Positions 8,952-43,827 of a stretch of 64,000 bases of DNA are shown here, piece after piece; position 1 is the first letter of the stretch; each line of letters starts with the position of its first letter. The notes under the pieces were generated by a model that did no database searches, was not told the DNA's origin, and worked only from the letters and a program-made list of their open reading frames with translations. A program made the position numbers and the translations under genes. This DNA is from a virus: the IMG/VR virus record IMGVR_UViG_3300025818_000017; one strand, written 5' to 3'.

Positions 8952-9615
8952 ATGTGAGTTTTGCGGTAAGTCGTTCCGTAGAGAAAAGTCACTTATGGCT
9001 CACGCTTGTGAGCAGAAGCGCAGACATCAACAAGAGAAAGAGATTGGTGTCCAGTTTGGCTATCGTGCTTACAAACGATTCTATGAAATGACACAAAACA
9101 AGAAAGTGCCACCATCATATGATGAGTTTTGTAAGTCTCAGTATTATTTGGCGTTTGTGAAGTTTGGGCGTCATATCAAAATGATAAGGGCGCTGAAACC
9201 AGAACGTTTTATTGATTGGGTTATCAAGGAAAACAAAAAACTGGACAAGTGGTGTACCGATAAGGTTTACGAGGACTACTTACACGATACGATACGAAAA
9301 GAGAACCCTAACGATACATTGCAGCGAGCGTTCACGGAAATGATTGATTGGGGAGACAAGGAAGGTGCGGAGTGGAACCATTACTTCAAATATGCAGCAC
9401 CTAACAGAGTTGTCCAGTCTATCATCAGGGGTTCTATATCACCGTGGGTTCTTTATAACTGTGATAGTGGTTTGGAGTTCTTGGGAAAACTAAATGAAGA
9501 ACAGTTGGGTTTTATCTTTGAGTACATTGACCCTGATTACTGGACTTCACGTTTCGGTAACTATGTAGCCGATGCAGAATACATAAAAGACACACTGAAA
9601 GAGGCTGGATTATGA
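8923..9615 (+). CDS. C2H2-type zinc-finger protein
   Basis: N-terminal CEFCGKSF...LMAHAC. Confidence 0.65.
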   Translation: MTSTSNPSFKCEFCGKSFRREKSLMAHACEQKRRHQQEKEIGVQFGYRAYKRFYEMTQNKKVPPSYDEFCKSQYYLAFVKFGRHIKMIRALKPERFIDWVIKENKKLDKWCTDKVYEDYLHDTIRKENPNDTLQRAFTEMIDWGDKEGAEWNHYFKYAAPNRVVQSIIRGSISPWVLYNCDSGLEFLGKLNEEQLGFIFEYIDPDYWTSRFGNYVADAEYIKDTLKEAGL

Positions 9616-10202
9616 AATACGATTTACCTGATGTAGACATAGATTGTGCCGACAGGGATAAAGTGTTGGCAGTGCTAGATGGTTATACTAATGCTACCAT
9701 CGTCAAGAATGATGAGCATACCAAGCATAACACTGGTATCTATGTATGTGATATTCCTACTGACCCCCGAACCAATAACTGTACCTTTGACTATAAGGAA
9801 GCAGAAGACCGTGGTTTTGTAAAACTGGATATTCTAAATGTTCATGTTTATGAACTGGTGCGTGATGAGGAACACCTAAACGAACTGATAAGTAAAGAAC
9901 CTAACTGGGAACGGCTATGGACTGACCGTGAGTTTTGTGAAAAGATTATTCATATCAACAACTACTATGACTTATTGGGTAAGATGAAACCAGATAGTAT
10001 TCCACGAATGGCGATGTTCATTTCCATTATCCGTCCAGGTAAGAAACATCTTATCGGCAAACCATGGAAAGAGATTGCGGAGACTGTCTGGGAACGCCCA
10101 GATGAAGGTTACTTCTTCAAGATGTCACATTCCATATCTTATTCACACCTCGTAGCAATCCATATGAACATCATTGAAGAAAAGGAGCATCAAGTATTAT
10201 GA
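9612..10202 (+). CDS. Minimal DNA polymerase III alpha (DnaE)-like catalytic core
   Basis: PDVDID, GFVKLDILN, KPDS..MFISIIRPG and YFFKMSHSISY match DnaE palm/finger motifs in only 196 aa. Confidence 0.7.
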   Translation: MKYDLPDVDIDCADRDKVLAVLDGYTNATIVKNDEHTKHNTGIYVCDIPTDPRTNNCTFDYKEAEDRGFVKLDILNVHVYELVRDEEHLNELISKEPNWERLWTDREFCEKIIHINNYYDLLGKMKPDSIPRMAMFISIIRPGKKHLIGKPWKEIAETVWERPDEGYFFKMSHSISYSHLVAIHMNIIEEKEHQVL

Positions 10203-10235
10203 GTGTTGAGCAGTTGGTAGAGGAACTGCAAGAAA

Positions 10236-10451
10236 ATGACCAAGCATAACTATGAGATTGTATGGTTGCCCATCGGTGATGATGAATATATAGAGAAGTG
10301 TACTAAATGCGATACTCTTAGAACTTATGATGGTGCGTTTGGATTGAGGGAAATACCTAGCTCTTCGGTTTCACCCTGCGAACCAGTTGTATGTTCGTTC
10401 TCTTTATCCTTTTGGCTGAAATCTCTGCTAGGCTTACATAAGGACCGCTAA
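10236..10451 (+). CDS. Small hypothetical protein (CxxC)
   Basis: ORF; 3' end overlaps a convergent gene. Confidence 0.4.
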   Translation: MTKHNYEIVWLPIGDDEYIEKCTKCDTLRTYDGAFGLREIPSSSVSPCEPVVCSFSLSFWLKSLLGLHKDR

Positions 10452-10746
10452 CGATATCACAGTCTTTACTGTTTAATGTTGTAAGACAATGCTTTACTGG
10501 TTCCCAGTTTTCTTTGAGGAAGATATTGATGGGAATCATTCTATTACTTTCCCACCACCAAGTATCCCCTAGTTCTAGGAACAAGCGTTTTTCCTCCAAG
10601 CTTTTCAACTTAGAATAATCATATAGGCTGGTAATCATTTTATCCTTATTTTGGATAATACCAACGTATTCCCCGCCCCCATATGTCAAATGAGATATAA
10701 AAGGGTATCGCTCTGCGATTTTAGCAAAAAGGTCTTCATCTTCCAT
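10357..10746 (-). CDS. Conserved phage hypothetical protein
   Basis: ORF 5 nt downstream of a perfect minus-strand TATAAATA. Confidence 0.75.
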   Translation of the reverse strand: MEDEDLFAKIAERYPFISHLTYGGGEYVGIIQNKDKMITSLYDYSKLKSLEEKRLFLELGDTWWWESNRMIPINIFLKENWEPVKHCLTTLNSKDCDIVSGPYVSLAEISAKRIKRTNIQLVRRVKPKS

Positions 10747-10751
10747 CTTGG

Positions 10752-10782
10752 TATTTATAAGTTGGGAATGAGGGGATAAATA
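10752..10782. promoter_or_regulatory. Back-to-back T4-type late promoters
   Basis: Minus-strand TATAAATA at 10752-10759 and plus-strand TAAATA at 10777-10782, each 5 nt from an ATG. Confidence 0.7.
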
Positions 10783-10787
10783 ATAAC

Positions 10788-11546
10788 ATGATCAAACAGG
10801 ACGTATTTTTATATAAGCAGACAATGAAAGTCAACTTGACCGAGAGCGTCCTCGTGCCAGGGAGAGATGAAATGTTTTATGCTAGACCAATGCAACTTTA
10901 TAGAGGCGTTGATAATACGGTACATTTTCAGTTCCGTAATAATGACCAGAAGAAAGTGGCAATCCACCAAAAAACAATCACTTTTAACATTATTGATAAC
11001 GCTGACCACACAACCCACCTAACCAGAACAATGACGATTGAGGATGGCAATAATGGTATTGCTAAACTGGTTATTTCAGAAGCAGATTTACTAGATATCA
11101 AGGAACAGTATTACACTTGGAGCGTAAAGGTTGTGAATGGTGAAGGTGATGAATATGTAGCCTACACTGATGATAACTTTGGTGCGAGAGGCGAGCTACA
11201 AGTCAAGCATGGTGTATACCCAGAGTTTATGGAAAGCGTAAGTGTTGGTTTCCGTGGTGGTAATACCACAGCCGCTATTGATGCGAAACCACGCCTAAAC
11301 AATAACGCAGCACTTCATACCGCACAGTTTTATTTTGACCAAGCATATACAGGCACCATCACCGTTCAAGGCACGATGGACAATGTTGCTAACCAAGTAT
11401 CCGCTAACTGGTTTGATATCAAGACAGTCACTTATACAGCCGACAGTAGCCCACAATATACCACTTGGAATGGTGTGTTTAGTGCTGTTAGGTTTGTAAA
11501 AGCCGACACAACAGGAACAGTGAGTTCAGTACTGTATAGACACTAA
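10788..11546 (+). CDS. Putative virion protein, BppU-like baseplate domain
   Basis: Beta-rich; LYRGVDNTVHFQFRN and GIAKLVIS motifs; late promoter. Confidence 0.5.
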   Translation: MIKQDVFLYKQTMKVNLTESVLVPGRDEMFYARPMQLYRGVDNTVHFQFRNNDQKKVAIHQKTITFNIIDNADHTTHLTRTMTIEDGNNGIAKLVISEADLLDIKEQYYTWSVKVVNGEGDEYVAYTDDNFGARGELQVKHGVYPEFMESVSVGFRGGNTTAAIDAKPRLNNNAALHTAQFYFDQAYTGTITVQGTMDNVANQVSANWFDIKTVTYTADSSPQYTTWNGVFSAVRFVKADTTGTVSSVLYRH

Positions 11547-12133
11547 TGAGAGCAACAGAGTTCATCGCCGAATATCGCAACACAGATGACCCCGCTCTCC
11601 GAAAATGGTTTGCTGGTTCAAAGGTTGTGGATAAAGATAGAAAGCCGTTGATTGTATATCACGGCACATTGTTCAACGATGAAATCAAGTCGTTCCACGA
11701 TTTATCACATTTTGGAACACAAGGTGCTGCTAATGCTCGTATTGAAGACTTACTAAATCTTCACCCGTCAGCACGTGGATATAATCAACCATCTCCTGGC
11801 GAAGAAAAACCGCACATTTATCCCGTATATCTAAAAATCGTCAATCCAATACAACTACCAGATTTGGCCGAATGGCATTGGAGTGATATGTGGATGGAAC
11901 TTATAAAGACACACGAAGATGAGATTGGTAAACTCCTAAAAGATGACTATGGCGATGAATACGAAAGCACTTGGGATATGCTTGATGCTCTACAAACGTA
12001 TGATGAAAACCCATGGGAGTTTTTGAAGTCGTTGGGGCACGATGGTGTTTACTATGTGAATGCCCACGAAGATAAAGGCAAGATAAGTTGGATTCCATTT
12101 AGCGGCAAACAAGTGATGAGTGCGTTTGGATGA
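11546..12133 (+). CDS. ADP-ribosyltransferase-like (ART-PolyVal type) protein with CTS-like N-terminus
   Basis: WFAGSKVVD..KPLIVYHGT, HFGT, IYPVYLKIVNP, GHDGV; N-terminus MRATEFIAE. Confidence 0.6.
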   Translation: MRATEFIAEYRNTDDPALRKWFAGSKVVDKDRKPLIVYHGTLFNDEIKSFHDLSHFGTQGAANARIEDLLNLHPSARGYNQPSPGEEKPHIYPVYLKIVNPIQLPDLAEWHWSDMWMELIKTHEDEIGKLLKDDYGDEYESTWDMLDALQTYDENPWEFLKSLGHDGVYYVNAHEDKGKISWIPFSGKQVMSAFG

Positions 12134-12762
12134 GATTTGTAGGCTTCGGCTGTTCTTGGATGTACGGTTCAGAACTGGAACATTCAGTTGATCCATCGTT
12201 ATCATGGCACGAAAAGATAAAATATCAACACCAGAACTGTTTCCTTGGGTTATTGGGCGACAACGAAAATCTTTCTGACCCTGGTGGTTCTCTGAAATCT
12301 ATGTTCTATAAGTTTATGAATCATCAGGCAACAGCCGATACGGATGAAGTTTTTTATATCTTTGCCTTTACCACACCATCCCGTGAAAGTTGGTATGATA
12401 GCGACAAAAAAGAATGGAAGCATAGTTCTTGGATAAGCGACACAACATTGTTTGAAAACTCTTATAAAGACTATGTAACCCATACATGGTCGCCAGAATA
12501 CGAAAAGATACAATATACCGCAATGGTATCTGCTATGCTGAATACAGCAAGAGCCAAAGGTTTTAGATATATAGGGTTCAACGCTTTGAAGTCACCATAT
12601 ATCGTAAAAGACCCTAATATGTTTTGGGCTGGAACGAGTATGGAAGAACATATGAAACCAGAACAACTATGTGACGGTGGGCACCCGAATGAAGATGGGC
12701 ATAAATGGATTGCGGGTAGGATCAAGGAATTTATAGACACAGCCTATCCAGGTTTGCTATAA
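12130..12762 (+). CDS. SGNH/GDSL hydrolase-like protein, paralog 2
   Basis: FGCSWMYG and DGGHP motifs. Confidence 0.6.
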   Translation: MRFVGFGCSWMYGSELEHSVDPSLSWHEKIKYQHQNCFLGLLGDNENLSDPGGSLKSMFYKFMNHQATADTDEVFYIFAFTTPSRESWYDSDKKEWKHSSWISDTTLFENSYKDYVTHTWSPEYEKIQYTAMVSAMLNTARAKGFRYIGFNALKSPYIVKDPNMFWAGTSMEEHMKPEQLCDGGHPNEDGHKWIAGRIKEFIDTAYPGLL

Positions 12763-12769
12763 TAACTCT

Positions 12770-13804
12770 ATGAATATCATCCAGCAGACCGTCCACGATG
12801 CGTGGGTTTTTGGTCGTAGAACGAAAAAAGCATCCAAAGGATGGCTTACAGGTAATGCTGTGTGCTGTATTCATAATGGTGAGACACAAGATACTCGTGG
12901 TCGCGGTGGTATCATCATGGAAAACGACACGATATCTTATCATTGTTTTAATTGCGGTTTCAAAACTGGCTGGAAACCTGGTTGGCATCTATCATATAAG
13001 ATGCGTAAGCTTATGGGATGGATGGGTGTTGACGAGAGTACAGTCAAACGGATGGTATTTGAGAGTATGCGTGTCCGTGATGAAATCGGTATCGTTGAGG
13101 AAACAGAAGAGTTCAAACCAAAGCTTGATTTCAAGGTGCATGACCTACCCGACAAAGCCAAGCGGATAGGCGATACACTACTATGGTACGCAGTCGGTGA
13201 TGAGAACCTTGAGAACGTCGATGAGAACCTAACGGAAGTTATTGAGTATGCCCATGACCGTGGTCTTAGTCCCGCACAGATAGAAGATATGTACTGGACA
13301 CCAGACCCAATAAACAAGTTAAAAAAGATGAATAGACGCTTGATTATACCGATGACTTGGGAAAACCAGATTGTCGGGTATACGGCTAGGTCTATTGAGA
13401 ATAACAAAGTAAAGTATCTCAATGAGTACGACAGTGATTATGTATATAACATTGACAGACAGTTACCAGATGCTAAGTTTGCTATACTTGTAGAGGGACC
13501 GCTAGATGCACAATCCATAGGCGGCGTTGGTATACTGGGGAGCGAGATATCAGAAGTCAAAGCTGATATCATTGATAGATTGGGCAGAGAGATTATCCTA
13601 GTGCCTGACCGTGATAGCAAAGGTCAGAAACTGGTTGACTTGGCGCTTGAGTATGGATGGAGTGTATCGTTTCCAGATTGGGAAGCTCACGATGTGAACG
13701 ATGCAGTACAACTATATGGTAAAGTATACACACTCAAAAAAATTCTAGAGTGTAAATACGACACACGGTTAAAGATTGAATTGATGAGGAAAAAATACGT
13801 ATGA
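12770..13804 (+). CDS. DNA primase (gp61/DnaG-like)
   Basis: Zn-binding CCIH..HCFNCG, TOPRIM VEGPLDA and PDRD. Confidence 0.85.
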   Translation: MNIIQQTVHDAWVFGRRTKKASKGWLTGNAVCCIHNGETQDTRGRGGIIMENDTISYHCFNCGFKTGWKPGWHLSYKMRKLMGWMGVDESTVKRMVFESMRVRDEIGIVEETEEFKPKLDFKVHDLPDKAKRIGDTLLWYAVGDENLENVDENLTEVIEYAHDRGLSPAQIEDMYWTPDPINKLKKMNRRLIIPMTWENQIVGYTARSIENNKVKYLNEYDSDYVYNIDRQLPDAKFAILVEGPLDAQSIGGVGILGSEISEVKADIIDRLGREIILVPDRDSKGQKLVDLALEYGWSVSFPDWEAHDVNDAVQLYGKVYTLKKILECKYDTRLKIELMRKKYV

Positions 13805-40253: not shown

Positions 40254-40535
40254 ATGCCCGATCAACTTACTAAAGAACAGTTCTGGCATATCCTGTCTTC
40301 GCCGATTATTGCTCGTCAATGCGGCACTTGCAAATACGAAGATAGAGAAGGGGATGAATGTTTTCATCCTACTGCTGCACGGAAGCCATTTGAGTTTATA
40401 TCGGGGCAGATGGTTGACGATATCAAATGCTCTGGTTATTACCATGATGGACTCAGTTTTGACCGTGAAGTGTACGAAGCGGATTGGGGTAACCATATCG
40501 TAGACCTTTGGGAGTGGAACGGTGAAACTTACTAA
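40254..40535 (+). CDS. Hypothetical Cys-containing protein
   Basis: CGTC..C..C; SD upstream. Confidence 0.6.
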   Translation: MPDQLTKEQFWHILSSPIIARQCGTCKYEDREGDECFHPTAARKPFEFISGQMVDDIKCSGYYHDGLSFDREVYEADWGNHIVDLWEWNGETY

Positions 40536-40941
40536 TAAAGAGAAGCGTTTATTTGACTTTCTCAAACGACAGGCTATTGATGTTGAGCCTGTGAGGTCTT
40601 CCCGTATCGTTGCTGCTGTTGTACTCAATGGGCAGATTATTAGCGTTGGGAATAACTCAATGAAGTCCCATCCGTTTGCCGCCAAGTATGGTAAGAATGA
40701 ACACGCCGTGTTTCTTCATGCTGAAACGGACGCTATCAAAAAAGCGTTGAACCATCTTGGTCCCAAAGATTTTAGTAAAGCAACGCTATATGTCCAGCGA
40801 GTAAAGCGACCAGACCCATCTAGGAAGAGAGGTTGGGTGAATGGTTTGTCCAAGCCGTGCCGTGGATGTATGAAAGCGGTTGTTGAGTTTGATTTTAAAA
40901 AGGTTGTTTATTCAACCGACGAAGGATATGAAGTCTTATAG
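40522..40941 (+). CDS. Zn-dependent cytidine/dCMP-type deaminase
   Basis: HAE and PCRGC motifs. Confidence 0.85.
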   Translation: MKLTNKEKRLFDFLKRQAIDVEPVRSSRIVAAVVLNGQIISVGNNSMKSHPFAAKYGKNEHAVFLHAETDAIKKALNHLGPKDFSKATLYVQRVKRPDPSRKRGWVNGLSKPCRGCMKAVVEFDFKKVVYSTDEGYEVL

Positions 40942-42135
40942 ACCCAATGCCCACTTGTTGTTTAGGTAGTTCTCAACGTTTCCAATCTCAACAGAGTTTA
41001 GTGTTCGGTCAAAGATAACGATTTCAGCAACATATCCTGTGTAGTTATTGGCATTTGCGCTATCCGCGCCGATAACCATTACGTTATTCAAGCTATTCGT
41101 TGTGGTTGTTCTTGTTCCAGCAAACCCTAGTGTATCTGTTGTTAAATCGTAACGGAATACTAGGTTTGCGGCATCTGTTCCCGCAGTACCGTCATATACT
41201 AAAGCAAAAATATGGAAGTCTGTGGTATCGCCAGCATTTGTTCCTGTTCCGGTGAGTGTATTTGTTCCATCGTCCATACGAACATTCCATGTGCCGCCAC
41301 TGTGGTAGATTTGTAGATCGTCTTGACGGGTAGTAGTCAAGTATGATGTGCCAGCGAGACTCAATGCTCTTGCTACCACGAAGATACTGAATCCAGCAGC
41401 ACTTGCCATATTAGTGAATGGATTGATATCCATGTAATCGTTAATACCATCAAACTCAACATAGCCGTAACCGTTTTGTGGCGTGGTGTTTTCGTATGTT
41501 GGTTTGCTGCTGCCTGTACTGTTTGCGTTGTGTGCATAATCTGATTTATCGGCCCATTGTGTAATCTGACCTTCATCTGTAGCACTTGGGATATATGTAG
41601 CGGTATCAGCACCATCATACCAAATTTGTAGAGCAGTGTCGGCGTCAGTAACTGCATCATTTGGGTCTTCAACAACAGCCCCTGCACCAGATACCCAGGG
41701 TCTATGTGGGACCAACGGGTTTATAGTTGTGCTATCGTCCACTAGGCTATTTCCTGTGTATGGACGAGCGAGAGCTAAAACATCATAAGTATTCCATTCT
41801 CTAAAGAAGGTTGCGGTATCGTCACCGTCTGCTTGTCTTTTTTCTTGTGCAATCTCTAATCTCATAAGTTGGTTGTTTTCTTTATCTGCTTGATTTTTAG
41901 CACAGCAGTCAATGTAATCACCTGTAGTAAGACCTAATGATGCGAGGGTATCTCCGCTATTATTGATGTCGTTTATTACTCTCGTGTTTCTCTCGCAGAT
42001 TGTGTAGTAAGCGGAACTCAACCCTTCATCTGCTGCGATAGCAGTAAGAAGCTGAGACATAGTTTGTCCATCATCAATGACAAGAGTATAACCTTGTCCA
42101 GTAAGTCCTTTGTAGTTTAGAGTAATGTTAGCCAT
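40936..42135 (-). CDS. Ubiquitin-like N-terminal domain fused to LamG/ConA-like domain
   Basis: KGLTGQGYTLVI..TM..I..DEGL resembles ubiquitin; WYDGAD..ITQWADKS and GYVAEIVIFDRTL are LamG-like; TATAAATA-N5-ATG. Confidence 0.65.
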   Translation of the reverse strand: MANITLNYKGLTGQGYTLVIDDGQTMSQLLTAIAADEGLSSAYYTICERNTRVINDINNSGDTLASLGLTTGDYIDCCAKNQADKENNQLMRLEIAQEKRQADGDDTATFFREWNTYDVLALARPYTGNSLVDDSTTINPLVPHRPWVSGAGAVVEDPNDAVTDADTALQIWYDGADTATYIPSATDEGQITQWADKSDYAHNANSTGSSKPTYENTTPQNGYGYVEFDGINDYMDINPFTNMASAAGFSIFVVARALSLAGTSYLTTTRQDDLQIYHSGGTWNVRMDDGTNTLTGTGTNAGDTTDFHIFALVYDGTAGTDAANLVFRYDLTTDTLGFAGTRTTTTNSLNNVMVIGADSANANNYTGYVAEIVIFDRTLNSVEIGNVENYLNNKWALGL

Positions 42136-42192
42136 ATCTATATTTATAATATATTGCAAGTTATCGTCTGTATATGTTAGAATAAATACTGT

Positions 42193-43827
42193 ATGAAAAG
42201 TACTGCTGTAATGGGCTGGCTTGCCCTCTTTATGTCTTTAGCTATCGCCGCTTGTGCGGCGTATTTTAGTATTGCTGGTTTGGCGGTATTGTTTGCCGCC
42301 GCTCTCATTCCTGTTATCATTATGGCTACCACGCTGGAGATTGGGAAGCTCGTAGCAACTTTCTTCCTGCATAGATTTTGGGAAGAATTGCCGGGGCAAA
42401 TAAAATATCCAATGACAATGATGGTCGTTATTCTTATGCTTATTACGAGTATGGGTATCTTTGGTTTCTTATCTAAGGGACACATTGAACAAGAAGCACC
42501 AGAAATCTCAATGCAAACTGAGATAGATAACGTTGATAATCAGATCGGTTTCCACAAGGGTGCTATCAAGGACATTGAGAAAGACCTTGCACAAATTCGT
42601 GAAAGTCTAGACAGATACACTGAATTAGGTGCTGTTACAAAAGGTCTAGCAGCACGAGAAAAACTACAAAAAGATATTGACGGTCTACGAGAAAAGATTG
42701 CTAAAGAGCGTAAAGAAATCCGTACCCTTGAAGAAGAGAAGTTAAATATTAGACAACGAATAAATGAGATTGAAGCCAAGCTTGGTCCTGTAAAGTACGT
42801 TGCAGAATTATTTGGCTTTGACCTCAAGGAAGACCCGCAAGGTAAGGGTAAAGCAGTCCGTATTGTTATTGTGCTATTCATGCTTGCTTTTGACCCGTTG
42901 GCTATTTGGCTGGTCATGGCTAGTGATTGGGCTTTCCTAAAGTATCGCAGAGAAAGAGAAGAACTAGGCTTAGACGAAAAAGAGGAAGAAGAGCGTCAGC
43001 GTAAACTAGAAGAAGAAGAGCAAAGAAGACTACAAAAGATAGCTGAAAAAGAAAAAGAACTAGAAGAAAAACTATCTAAAAAAAACCTGACCAAAGAGGA
43101 AGAAATGACCGAGCTTGAGGAAGCATTGGTCCAAGTGTATCATCAACTAGAGGAAAAAGAAATGGAACTAAAAGAGTATACCGCAATCCTAGAAGAGCTA
43201 GGTCGCACGTTGGATGAAAAGCCAACGGAAATTGAGAAAATCGTTGAGATTGAGAATACTGAAAAACTAGAAGAAATGGTTGCCGAAATTAACCAACTTG
43301 AAAGTCAGAAGATAAACCTAGAGCAAGAAATGGAAAGTATTCGTGCTAGTTTGATGACAAAGGAACAAGTTGCAGACGAGCTAAAACAAGCTTTGGTAGA
43401 AGTTAGAAACGAACTAGAAAGTATTCGCCAAGAGAATAACGCTCTCAGAAGTGACATTGAAGCACGTGATAATGCAGTTGCTTCGTTGAATAAGAAATAT
43501 AATCTTGTTGAGAAAATCCCAGGTATGGTTCTTCGTCCCGACACAGGTACGCCAAAAGACGCTACCTTTGGTACAGATTTCCCATCTAACCCAGTAAACG
43601 GTCAGCAGTTTCTTCGTGTTGATGAACTACCAAGTAAACTATACAAGTACGATGGTTCCCGTTGGGTAGAAGTTGTAAAAGACGTTGATGTTGAGTACGA
43701 TGAACAATATCTACAGCATCTTATTAACGAGTTGGGAGAAGGCAACGTTGAACTTGACGACTTGAGCCAAAAAGAACAAGAGGAAATCCAAGCCTTATTA
43801 AGCAAAGACGATGTACTCGGACAATAA
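42193..43827 (+). CDS. Inner-membrane protein with long coiled coil
   Basis: Several N-terminal TM helices, LEIGKLV, E/K-rich coiled coil. Confidence 0.75.
   Translation: MKSTAVMGWLALFMSLAIAACAAYFSIAGLAVLFAAALIPVIIMATTLEIGKLVATFFLHRFWEELPGQIKYPMTMMVVILMLITSMGIFGFLSKGHIEQEAPEISMQTEIDNVDNQIGFHKGAIKDIEKDLAQIRESLDRYTELGAVTKGLAAREKLQKDIDGLREKIAKERKEIRTLEEEKLNIRQRINEIEAKLGPVKYVAELFGFDLKEDPQGKGKAVRIVIVLFMLAFDPLAIWLVMASDWAFLKYRREREELGLDEKEEEERQRKLEEEEQRRLQKIAEKEKELEEKLSKKNLTKEEEMTELEEALVQVYHQLEEKEMELKEYTAILEELGRTLDEKPTEIEKIVEIENTEKLEEMVAEINQLESQKINLEQEMESIRASLMTKEQVADELKQALVEVRNELESIRQENNALRSDIEARDNAVASLNKKYNLVEKIPGMVLRPDTGTPKDATFGTDFPSNPVNGQQFLRVDELPSKLYKYDGSRWVEVVKDVDVEYDEQYLQHLINELGEGNVELDDLSQKEQEEIQALLSKDDVLGQ

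Follow-up and report, generated by a model that had tools for sequence, protein, structure and literature searches.

A predicted non-conjugatable ubiquitin-like domain caps a LamG-headed, adhesin-type protein of an aquatic jumbo phage

The window analysed here is the whole 64,000-nucleotide stretch of viral DNA (IMG/VR record IMGVR_UViG_3300025818_000017), and the gene under study lies on its minus strand. The encoded protein is divided by sequence and structure prediction into an N-terminal ubiquitin-like (Ubl) domain, a helix, an extended linker and a C-terminal LamG head. The features of the locus are as follows.

40936..42135, minus strand: complete coding sequence of 399 amino acids plus stop (start codon ATG at 42135, stop codon at 40936-40938), from the open reading frame list and translation
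41896..42135, minus strand: ubiquitin-like beta-grasp domain, residues 1-80, integral and without Gly-Gly, from the model, Foldseek, VIA and profile matches
41833..41886, minus strand: basic amphipathic helix, residues 84-101 (in the full model, DSSP assigns a helix to 85-100)
41641..41832, minus strand: extended linker, residues 102-165, of low model confidence (pLDDT 48-77)
40939..41640, minus strand: LamG or concanavalin-A-like jelly-roll head, residues 166-399, from the model and Foldseek
42141..42148, minus strand: TATAAATA, a T4-late-promoter-like box 5 nt upstream of the ATG
40902..40917, minus strand: terminator-like hairpin followed by TTTTT, from a consensus scan only, ~20 nt past the stop codon and inside the convergent deaminase gene

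The start was placed at the ATG at 42135 because all homologues begin with MA(N/T/A)I at the matching position; a rival TTG start at 42159, which would give a longer form, is used by no homologue. The identical 399-residue protein is encoded in the same arrangement on 13 independent contigs. The initial annotation described an isolated minus-strand gene, and this description holds, as both neighbouring genes are on the plus strand and the LamG/Ubl gene is the sole minus-strand gene between them. Searches of the window with a family HMM and an N-domain HMM recover this gene alone, without paralogues. Neither a signal peptide nor a membrane segment is found in the 399-residue sequence. In one metatranscriptome, a lone contig of 168 nt is identical to 41166-41333; this is too little, with DNA carry-over being possible, and transcription is therefore not claimed.

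The sequence TATAAATA, which is the T4 late-promoter consensus, stands immediately before the gene, and no Shine-Dalgarno sequence precedes the ATG. The position of the box 5 nt before the start codon suggests a leaderless or near-leaderless mRNA. The box occurs 7 times in the window against 5.1 expected, which is not an enrichment, so it is informative only by its position relative to start codons. The arrangement TAAATA-N4-5-ATG is present in the window before ~17 open reading frames (minimum length 50 aa), and a TAAATA box lies upstream of the family member at 8 of 24 relatives' loci. Since the arrangement also precedes non-structural genes, it does not establish the gene as late. The stem of the downstream hairpin is just 5 bp, which makes the terminator call weak.

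The C-terminal half had been assigned from the start to the LamG/ConA-like class. This assignment stands: the head is modelled with pLDDT above 90, and ConA-like or LamG matches were returned by Foldseek from both the PDB and BFVD with a probability of 1.00. The PDB search retrieved the tailspike of cyanopodophage Pan3 (9vyh_p, E 8e-9), followed by the lectin-like domains found in clostridial neurotoxins and trans-sialidases, and the BFVD search retrieved ConA-like phage proteins (E 1e-14 to 1e-10). The head also matches phrog_10356, annotated as 'virion structural protein', with E 1.5e-16. The Pfam family Laminin_G_3 (PF13385) is matched at 22.6 bits (E 1.3e-4), under the gathering cut-off of 27.6, and a precomputed table lists PF13385 for many homologues of 40-50% identity. 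Laminin-G3 lectin domains have been reported on jumbo-phage tail fibres and other virion components (PMC7824862). Ten polar residues of the head, Asp174, Asp196, Ser198, His202, Asn203, Asn205, Asp233, Asn238, Arg328, and Glu371, are invariant in the family and suggest a putative binding site. So many invariant polar residues fit a common ligand better than a fast-evolving host specificity, which we count against an adhesin. One conserved ligand would instead suit a lectin that works in or on the infected cell, for example by binding a phage-made glycan, or by remodelling or masking the host surface.

The resemblance to ubiquitin at the other end of the protein, which the initial annotation had drawn by eye, is borne out by sequence comparison. 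From a 48-sequence alignment, AF2 folded residues 1-85 (pLDDT 88.3, pTM 0.80), which are predicted to adopt a beta-beta-alpha-beta-(3-10)-beta topology. Foldseek against the PDB places ubiquitin and SUMO as the best matches of this model (E ~4e-6, probability 1.00), with target-normalised TM values of 0.75-0.85. In an independent all-against-representatives VIA search, the top 50 matches are exclusively Ub, UBL, UBX, SUMO and ISG15 domains, with Z of 10.6-12.5 and an rmsd of 1.6-2.2 Å over 73-80 residues. A PDB search with a 10-sequence N-domain profile retrieved single ubiquitins (E 1.5e-4 to 1.6e-3), and hhalign of the N-domain profile against 195 ubiquitin repeats gave a probability of 94.5% and E 7.9e-8 over 69 columns covering the entire domain. 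The profile alignment matches Lys9-Gly-Leu-Thr-Gly13 with Lys6-Thr-Leu-Thr-Gly10 of ubiquitin, Thr25 with Thr22, and Glu37-Gly38 with Glu34-Gly35. Polyubiquitins top the list in a search of 1.84 billion proteins. The window domain falls below the gathering threshold of the Pfam ubiquitin family PF00240 and gives no match to it; its best Pfam match is OTU1_UBXL (E 0.017-0.02), its weak Pfam matches are mostly ubiquitin-like families, and one of ten relatives tested matches PF00240 at E 3.3e-4. By model and profile, residues 1-80 are thus confirmed as a predicted ubiquitin-type beta-grasp domain with detectable sequence homology to ubiquitin.

The end of this domain reads ...DYIDCCAKNQADKEN, with no Gly-Gly after strand 5, and the chain continues as ...CCAKNQADKEN, running on into the helix. 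No family member has Gly-Gly at the Ubl boundary, and in 2 of the 46 members with a Ubl it occurs near the domain end, off the boundary. The initial view that the domain lacks a C-terminal Gly-Gly and is integral is therefore borne out; judged from the sequence, it stays permanently in the chain and is predicted to be non-conjugatable. The position aligned to Ile44 of ubiquitin is occupied by Cys, Ser, Ala or Leu, so that there is no conserved hydrophobic patch.

The helix that follows is the most conserved segment of the family, with the consensus TKxxRQxxKLxIAQxKR, in which Lys85, Gln89, Leu93, Ala96, Lys99, and Arg100 are invariant or nearly so. Conserved residues of the linker are Tyr117-Asp118, Leu122, Tyr126, Asn129, and Leu141. 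An invariant Arg145-Pro146-Trp147 (41695-41703) marks the end of the N-terminal module, and complete genes that encode no head stop one residue past this tripeptide. The mean pairwise identity is 60% for the helix, 56% for the linker, 50-53% for the head and 41% for the Ubl. The best conserved candidate for an anchor would thus be the helix-linker after the Ubl, not the Ubl. No relatives of the helix-linker were found in a PDB profile search, PHROGs or Pfam. PHROGs, searched with the Ubl and the helix-linker, gave nothing usable and holds no family for the N-terminal module, for which the ESM Atlas also returned no usable match.

Aquatic metagenomes, from fresh as well as marine waters, yielded several hundred relatives, and each genome among the searched records has one copy of the family gene. 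In 50,697 records of cultured phages, tblastn with the protein gave no match, which is counted against a place on the virion. The Ubl-helix-linker-RPW module is combined with PA14/GLEYA lectin domains in P0168, P0180, and P0239, with DUF285 repeats and PKD in P0163, and with LamG and extra domains in P0199 and P0234; it is also found alone, in the complete headless genes. The Ubl is carried by ~45% of the family (46 Ubl-plus and 57 Ubl-minus members, n=103), and on the head tree its presence switches at least 15 times, with at least 6 switches forced by supported branches. Sequence comparison thus describes a large, undescribed family, in which the heads are interchangeable and the Ubl cap has been gained or lost repeatedly. 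By analogy, a constant base with swapped tips is the pattern of phage fibre and receptor-binding proteins.

Forms that lack the Ubl begin instead with another N-terminal extension, and their loop behind the helix is longer, so that something seems to be needed at that end of the protein. The Ubl might accordingly be a fast-folding N-terminal domain that solubilises the helix-linker or controls oligomerisation until assembly, and may later be removed or buried. Its location at the extreme N-terminus, beside a segment for which disorder is predicted when it stands alone, would agree with such a role. Against such a role, no cleavage motif is conserved where the Ubl joins the helix. T4-type prohead-protease sites ((L/I)-x-E) are not seen by eye in the helix. 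An RxGG sequence follows the helix in only 10 of 103 members, with RQAD at this place in the window; where present, it lies ~25 residues beyond the beta-grasp and inside the helix module that the Ubl-less forms also keep, and no protease linkage is seen. A ubiquitin-like cleavage tail (LKRRGG) behind the helix is therefore rejected as a feature of the family in general. A role as an assembly aid is considered rather improbable.

The gene neighbourhood bears on where the protein acts. In many relatives, a phrog_1645 gene (E 1e-112 to 1e-116) is located 4-40 bp downstream of the family gene. Its product is 51% identical to an annotated virion structural protein of the cyanomyovirus S-RIM2, where the counterpart gene lies between the terminase subunit genes; no LamG homologue was found beside phrog_1645 in S-RIM2. 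A complex prediction that paired the N-terminal module of the L002 orthologue (residues 1-175) with the adjacent phrog_1645 product gave no answer (score 0.00, run without controls) and counts neither way. The window has neither the phrog_1645 partner nor the small upstream gene of the relatives, and its locus is a replication and nucleotide-metabolism region (DnaB, RNR, dCMP deaminase, and ClpX), not a structural module. The replicative helicase is nearest to those of the PA5oct jumbo myoviruses (48% identity). This setting and the missing partner are counted against a virion protein and, like the invariant polar residues of the head, favour a lectin that functions in or on the infected cell. 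Such a lectin, however, is at odds with the operon coupling of the relatives' gene to a virion structural gene, with the lack of a signal peptide or membrane segment, and with the head swapping that is typical of virion receptor-binding proteins, and we regard it as unlikely.

Similarity to virion proteins, a virion structural gene as the neighbour in relatives, and the promoter-like motif make it plausible that the gene is a late gene encoding a virion appendage. We favour, with a probability of roughly 0.5, a virion-displayed modular adhesin in which the Ubl is an accessory structural or docking cap. The protein would be an adhesin-type product of a jumbo myovirus, most likely shown on the particle, and would consist of three parts. 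The first is the N-terminal ubiquitin-family beta-grasp, fixed in the chain and presumably non-conjugatable. The second, the basic helix and extended linker up to Arg-Pro-Trp, may serve attachment to a partner or to itself, and the third, the C-terminal LamG lectin-type head, may bind host-surface carbohydrate. The Ubl itself would not be a tag but, at the molecule's base, an accessory domain for protein-protein interaction or a structural cap, in the manner of the integral UBL domains of eukaryotic multidomain proteins. A docking module is plausible, being compatible with the modular architecture.

Comparison with eukaryotic proteins reveals that the domain shares the beta-grasp fold with ubiquitin and with integral UBLs of the Dsk2, Rad23, parkin and OASL type (Z 11-12.5), together with the K-x-L-T-G turn, the helix N-cap Thr and the E-G helix C-cap in the profile. 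Like the present Ubl, these integral domains form the N-terminal part of larger proteins and are never conjugated. The present domain differs from them in being phage-encoded and joined to a lectin-type head, in lacking Gly-Gly and a conserved Ile44-type patch, and in falling under the PF00240 threshold.

To our knowledge, ubiquitin-type domains encoded by phages are barely documented beyond lambda gpI. The lambda tail assembly protein I (PF06805, Lambda_tail_I) is likewise a phage Ubl beta-grasp tied to virion (tail) assembly, and Lambda_tail_I is faintly matched by one family member (E 0.11). gpI is a small tail-tip assembly protein that is paired with the JAB/NlpC protein gpK. Its architecture is unrelated to that of the present protein, in which the Ubl caps a lectin protein and no JAB partner is found in five relatives' partial records. 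The jelly-roll head is shared with phage LamG/Laminin_G_3 virion proteins, including cyanophage structural proteins, the Pan3 tailspike (9vyh) and phrog_10356, whereas the N-terminal Ubl-helix-linker module is absent from all the matched LamG proteins of cultured phages. In receptor-binding proteins with a conserved N-terminal anchor, the N-terminal module is likewise constant while the C-terminal binding domains are exchanged; the module here differs in its length of ~150 residues, its inclusion of a Ubl and its single copy per genome searched.

The ubiquitin-like fold also appears in phage-bacterium biology through the bacterial Bil (BilABCD) and Bub systems. Bil is reported to tag phage tail fibre proteins by attaching a Ubl to the central tail fibre (10.1101/2023.09.04.556158; summarised in 10.1101/2024.11.21.623966). 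The Ubls of these systems are host-encoded beside E1, E2 and DUB genes and have a free, reactive C-terminus, whereas the present Ubl is phage-encoded and internal to the chain. The records of five relatives, which are 15-77% complete, show no match to E1 (PF00899) or Prok-JAB (PF14464).

The ubiquitin-like fold and sequence of the domain, together with the conjugation of a Ubl to the central tail fibre by Bil, would agree with the initial suggestion of a decoy for host E1 and E2 enzymes. The integral Ubl would then mimic a host Ubl (the substrates of Bil, Bub, and CBASS Cap2) and sequester or misdirect the host E1, E2 or deubiquitinase that would tag phage tail proteins. E1 adenylation, however, needs the free C-terminus/Gly-Gly of the Ubl, which is lacking here. 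The domain is also optional and often swapped, shows the lowest conservation within the protein, has no conserved patch at the Ile44-aligned position, and is always attached to adhesin-type heads, never free in a counter-defence locus; these points and the lack of E1 and JAB genes in the five partial records leave the decoy unsupported and very improbable. A broader version, which we likewise consider highly doubtful, holds that an aquatic jumbo-phage Ubl lineage, nearer to eukaryotic ubiquitin than to the ThiS/MoaD-type prokaryotic beta-grasps, was built into virion adhesins to thwart or exploit conjugation immunity of the Bil, Bub or Cap2 type. Possible means for this would be the recruitment of a host deubiquitinase or E2, or the occupation of the host tagging site.

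The modular adhesin thus remains the preferred reading. Since phage tail fibres are tagged by host Bil systems, Ubls have recently moved to the centre of the conflict between phages and bacteria, and the family offers a concrete link to ubiquitin-like immunity, though the evidence does not favour such a link. What is found here is a recurrent, mobile N-terminal cap with homology to ubiquitin on an uncharacterised jumbo-phage lectin family with LamG, PA14, and DUF285 heads. If displayed on the virion, the family would define a new attachment module for phage adhesins and would provide a case, from a prokaryotic virus, of an integral UBL that serves for interaction.

Modelling of the N-terminal domain bears out the proposal of the initial annotation that residues 1-80 of the Ubl-LamG protein form a ubiquitin-type beta-grasp domain (Ubl). 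Residues 1-85, folded with an alignment of 48 homologues, gave a model with a pLDDT of 88.3, in which the order strand-strand-helix-strand-(3-10)-strand is that of ubiquitin. Foldseek comparison with the PDB retrieved ubiquitin, SUMO, and ubiquitin variants (E ~4e-6, probability 1.00, TM 0.75-0.85 on the target). In a second structure search, independent of Foldseek, the top 50 matches among 48,161 representative chains were exclusively ISG15, ubiquitin, Hub1, Dsk2-UBL, OASL-UBL, SUMO, and UBX domains, with Z of 10.6-12.5 and rmsd of 1.6-2.2 Å over 73-80 residues.

A profile of ten N-domains, each from an independent locus, matched single ubiquitins in the PDB (E 1.5e-4 to 1.6e-3), and the alignment pairs K9-G-L-T-G13 with K6-T-L-T-G10, T25 with T22, and E37-G38 with E34-G35 of ubiquitin. 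Polyubiquitins head the list obtained from 1.84 billion representative proteins because ~15 bits are gained per repeat; profile-profile comparison with 195 ubiquitin repeats gave 94.5% probability and E of 7.9e-8 over 69 columns, the whole domain. Single-sequence Pfam matches are all sub-threshold, with the majority in the ubiquitin clan, and include OTU1_UBXL (six of ten members), ubiquitin, Ubiquitin_2, Rad60-SLD, Ubiquitin_4, UN_NPL4, and Lambda_tail_I. Strand 5 continues without a break (CCAKNQADKEN) into a helix, and Gly-Gly occurs at the Ubl/helix boundary in no family member; judged from sequence, the Ubl is an integral domain lacking a C-terminal GG, as first described. An LKRRGG tail is no general trait of the family, since RxGG past the helix is present in just 10 of 103 members and the window protein has RQAD there.

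The full-length model (pLDDT 86) shows a helix at residues 85-100, low confidence for residues 100-165, and a LamG/ConA jelly roll at residues 166-399 (pLDDT >90), in keeping with the annotated LamG/ConA-like C-terminal half. The best PDB match of this head is the cyanopodophage Pan3 tailspike, followed by lectin-like domains of clostridial neurotoxin binding fragments and trans-sialidases; the BFVD matches are ConA-like proteins from uncultured and cyanobacterial phages. Pfam Laminin_G_3 falls slightly under its threshold (22.6 vs 27.6 bits). The head has a match, at E of 1.5e-16, in phrog_10356 “virion structural protein”. No relatives of the helix-linker were found in PHROG, Pfam, or the PDB. 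We also note that L069 and L073, IMG/VR GVMAG contigs binned as giant-virus MAGs, carry LamG heads related to the family at 28-33% identity.

More than 197 relatives were found in metagenomes and 173 family loci in IMG/VR; a search of 50,697 cultured phage records returned no member. Two forms exist, one of ~396-400 residues with the Ubl and one of ~335 residues without it, starting MSANGISTL. The Ubl is present in 46 of 103 aligned members. Mapped onto a maximum-likelihood tree built quickly from the head, its presence changes at least 15 times, with at least 6 changes forced by well-supported branches; the cap is therefore often exchanged. Mean pairwise identity is 60% for the helix, 56% for the linker, 50-53% for the head, and lowest, 41%, for the Ubl.

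The N-domain profile further reveals the Ubl-helix-linker module on PA14/GLEYA heads (homologues P0168, P0180, and P0239). The module is joined to DUF285 repeats and a PKD domain in P0163, and to LamG with inserted or appended domains in P0199 and P0234. Headless proteins, consisting of Ubl, helix, and linker, stop 1-3 residues past the invariant Arg-Pro-Trp, several of them at one residue:

L093 1065-1751 and L095 93-533 (P0249, P0148), headless genes
P0131, P0149, P0169, P0241, P0255, other headless members

Both headless genes inspected on their contigs are complete, and small genes lie downstream, together with a repeat-rich fibre-like gene in L093. The varied heads and the complete headless genes indicate that the N-terminal ~150 residues are a self-standing module bearing interchangeable lectin- or adhesin-type heads. 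P0008 (532 aa) and P0044 (478 aa) carry at the C-terminus a Hint (intein-like) domain that follows straight after the LamG C-terminus, with Cys as first residue and the end ...VVHNK; this autoprocessing domain could self-cleave, or ligate the lectin C-terminus to something.

The locus in the window is arranged as follows:

40936-42135, minus strand, Ubl-LamG ORF, 399 residues, start ATG at 42135
42148-42141, minus strand, TATAAATA octamer, 5 nt between its end and the Ubl-LamG ATG
42193-43827, plus strand, 544-residue protein; membrane segments at the N-terminus, long coiled coil rich in Glu and Lys, small domain at the C-terminus

A longer TTG-initiated frame is possible from 42159; all homologues, however, have their MA(N/T/A)I start aligned with the ATG at 42135, and the initial coordinates are therefore right. 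The description as an isolated minus-strand gene also holds, since both neighbours are on the plus strand: the dCMP-deaminase gene is convergent with an overlap of 6 nt, and 57 nt separate the divergent 544-residue gene. An identical protein in the same arrangement on 13 contigs from several samples rules out an assembly artefact. The 544-residue gene adjoins the family in several relatives too, and its PHROG matches, to tape-measure and virion proteins, are all weak. Within it, ~43 nt (42450-42493) are common to many short, otherwise unrelated contigs, with high depth in three metagenomes and loose ends on both sides; this stretch is a repeated element or else a coding motif of very wide conservation.

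No Shine-Dalgarno sequence lies upstream of the Ubl-LamG ATG. A TAAATA box 4-5 nt ahead of an ATG is found at ~17 window ORFs of at least 50 aa, among them Ubl-LamG and the divergent 544-residue gene, for example at:

10777, 16530, 18389, 18805, 26817, 35697, 42183, 49932, plus strand, TAAATA-ATG sites
42146, 23864, 16005, 10757, 2312, minus strand, TAAATA-ATG sites

This spacing suggests a promoter class yielding leaderless or near-leaderless mRNAs. Among 24 relatives' loci, 8 have the box upstream of the family member, and a Shine-Dalgarno leader often accompanies it. TATAAATA is the T4 late-promoter consensus. Non-structural genes are preceded by the motif as well, and the raw count of the octamer in the window is not enriched; the gene is thus a putative late gene.

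The window covers a region of a large phage genome devoted to replication and nucleotide metabolism and encodes two helicases, RNR, dCMP deaminase, and ClpX. The closest match of the replicative helicase (48%) lies in the PA5oct group of jumbo myoviruses. Contigs of relatives, 167-275 kb long and rated 45-77% complete, imply genomes of ~350 kb. In many relatives, a phrog_1645 gene (virion structural family; E 1e-112 to 1e-116) lies directly 3' of the family gene, at a stop-to-start distance of 4-40 bp. It is 51% identical to an annotated virion structural protein of cyanomyovirus S-RIM2, whose gene is flanked by those of the small and large terminase subunits. The phrog_1645 family is common to these jumbo phages and T4-like cyanomyoviruses. 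Many relatives also carry a small acidic companion gene; the coordinates of both are:

L002 11204-12601, L081 11183-12484, L084 1282-2616, S-RIM2 KX349276.1 101179-102453, phrog_1645 genes
L081 9708-10001, L093 2173-2424, L095 546-812, L001-L003 9721-9972, small acidic gene, 83-97 aa, start MRA(T/A)EF...

L002/L003, the closest relatives (51% identity), have the deaminase gene, the small gene, Ubl-LamG, phrog_1645, and the coiled-coil gene in this order on one strand (9294-13178). In the window (40522-43827), Ubl-LamG occupies the same position inverted, neither the small gene nor phrog_1645 is present, and hardly any intergenic DNA remains; no inverted repeats were found flanking the gene. 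Other relatives have the family gene elsewhere within the replication module, and it behaves like a mobile cassette.

We propose that the protein is a modular adhesin displayed on the virion, a reading to which we give a probability of about one half. Support for this location is indirect: the head resembles virion proteins, the gene is operon-coupled to a virion structural gene in relatives, heads are swapped on a constant module, a promoter-like motif is present, and LamG domains are reported for jumbo phages (PMC7824862). Constraint is strongest on the conserved basic helix and its extended linker; the prediction that they are disordered in isolation fits a segment that gains order upon binding a partner or within an oligomer. 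The head is a lectin-type domain, and the Ubl, at the extreme N-terminus, serves as an optional cap.

The initial annotation had raised the idea of a decoy for host E1/E2 enzymes. Bil systems, which conjugate a ubiquitin-like protein to phage tail parts, are reported to tag tail fibres (10.1101/2024.11.21.623966), and a Ubl mimicking the conjugated protein could in principle interfere. Nothing in the domain points to such mimicry: it has no free C-terminus and no conserved Ile44-type patch, is optional and fast-evolving, and is invariably attached to adhesin heads. In the partial records of five relatives, the Ubl is single-copy and no E1 or JAB genes are present. We consider the decoy very improbable. 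As part of an adhesin, the Ubl is best likened to integral UBL domains used as interaction surfaces.

A full-text literature search returned no description of a phage LamG or receptor-binding protein with a ubiquitin-like domain, and a comparative survey of jumbo phages does not mention one. We class the protein as a phage modular adhesin, a known kind; its N-terminal module, which contains a ubiquitin-family domain, has not been described before.
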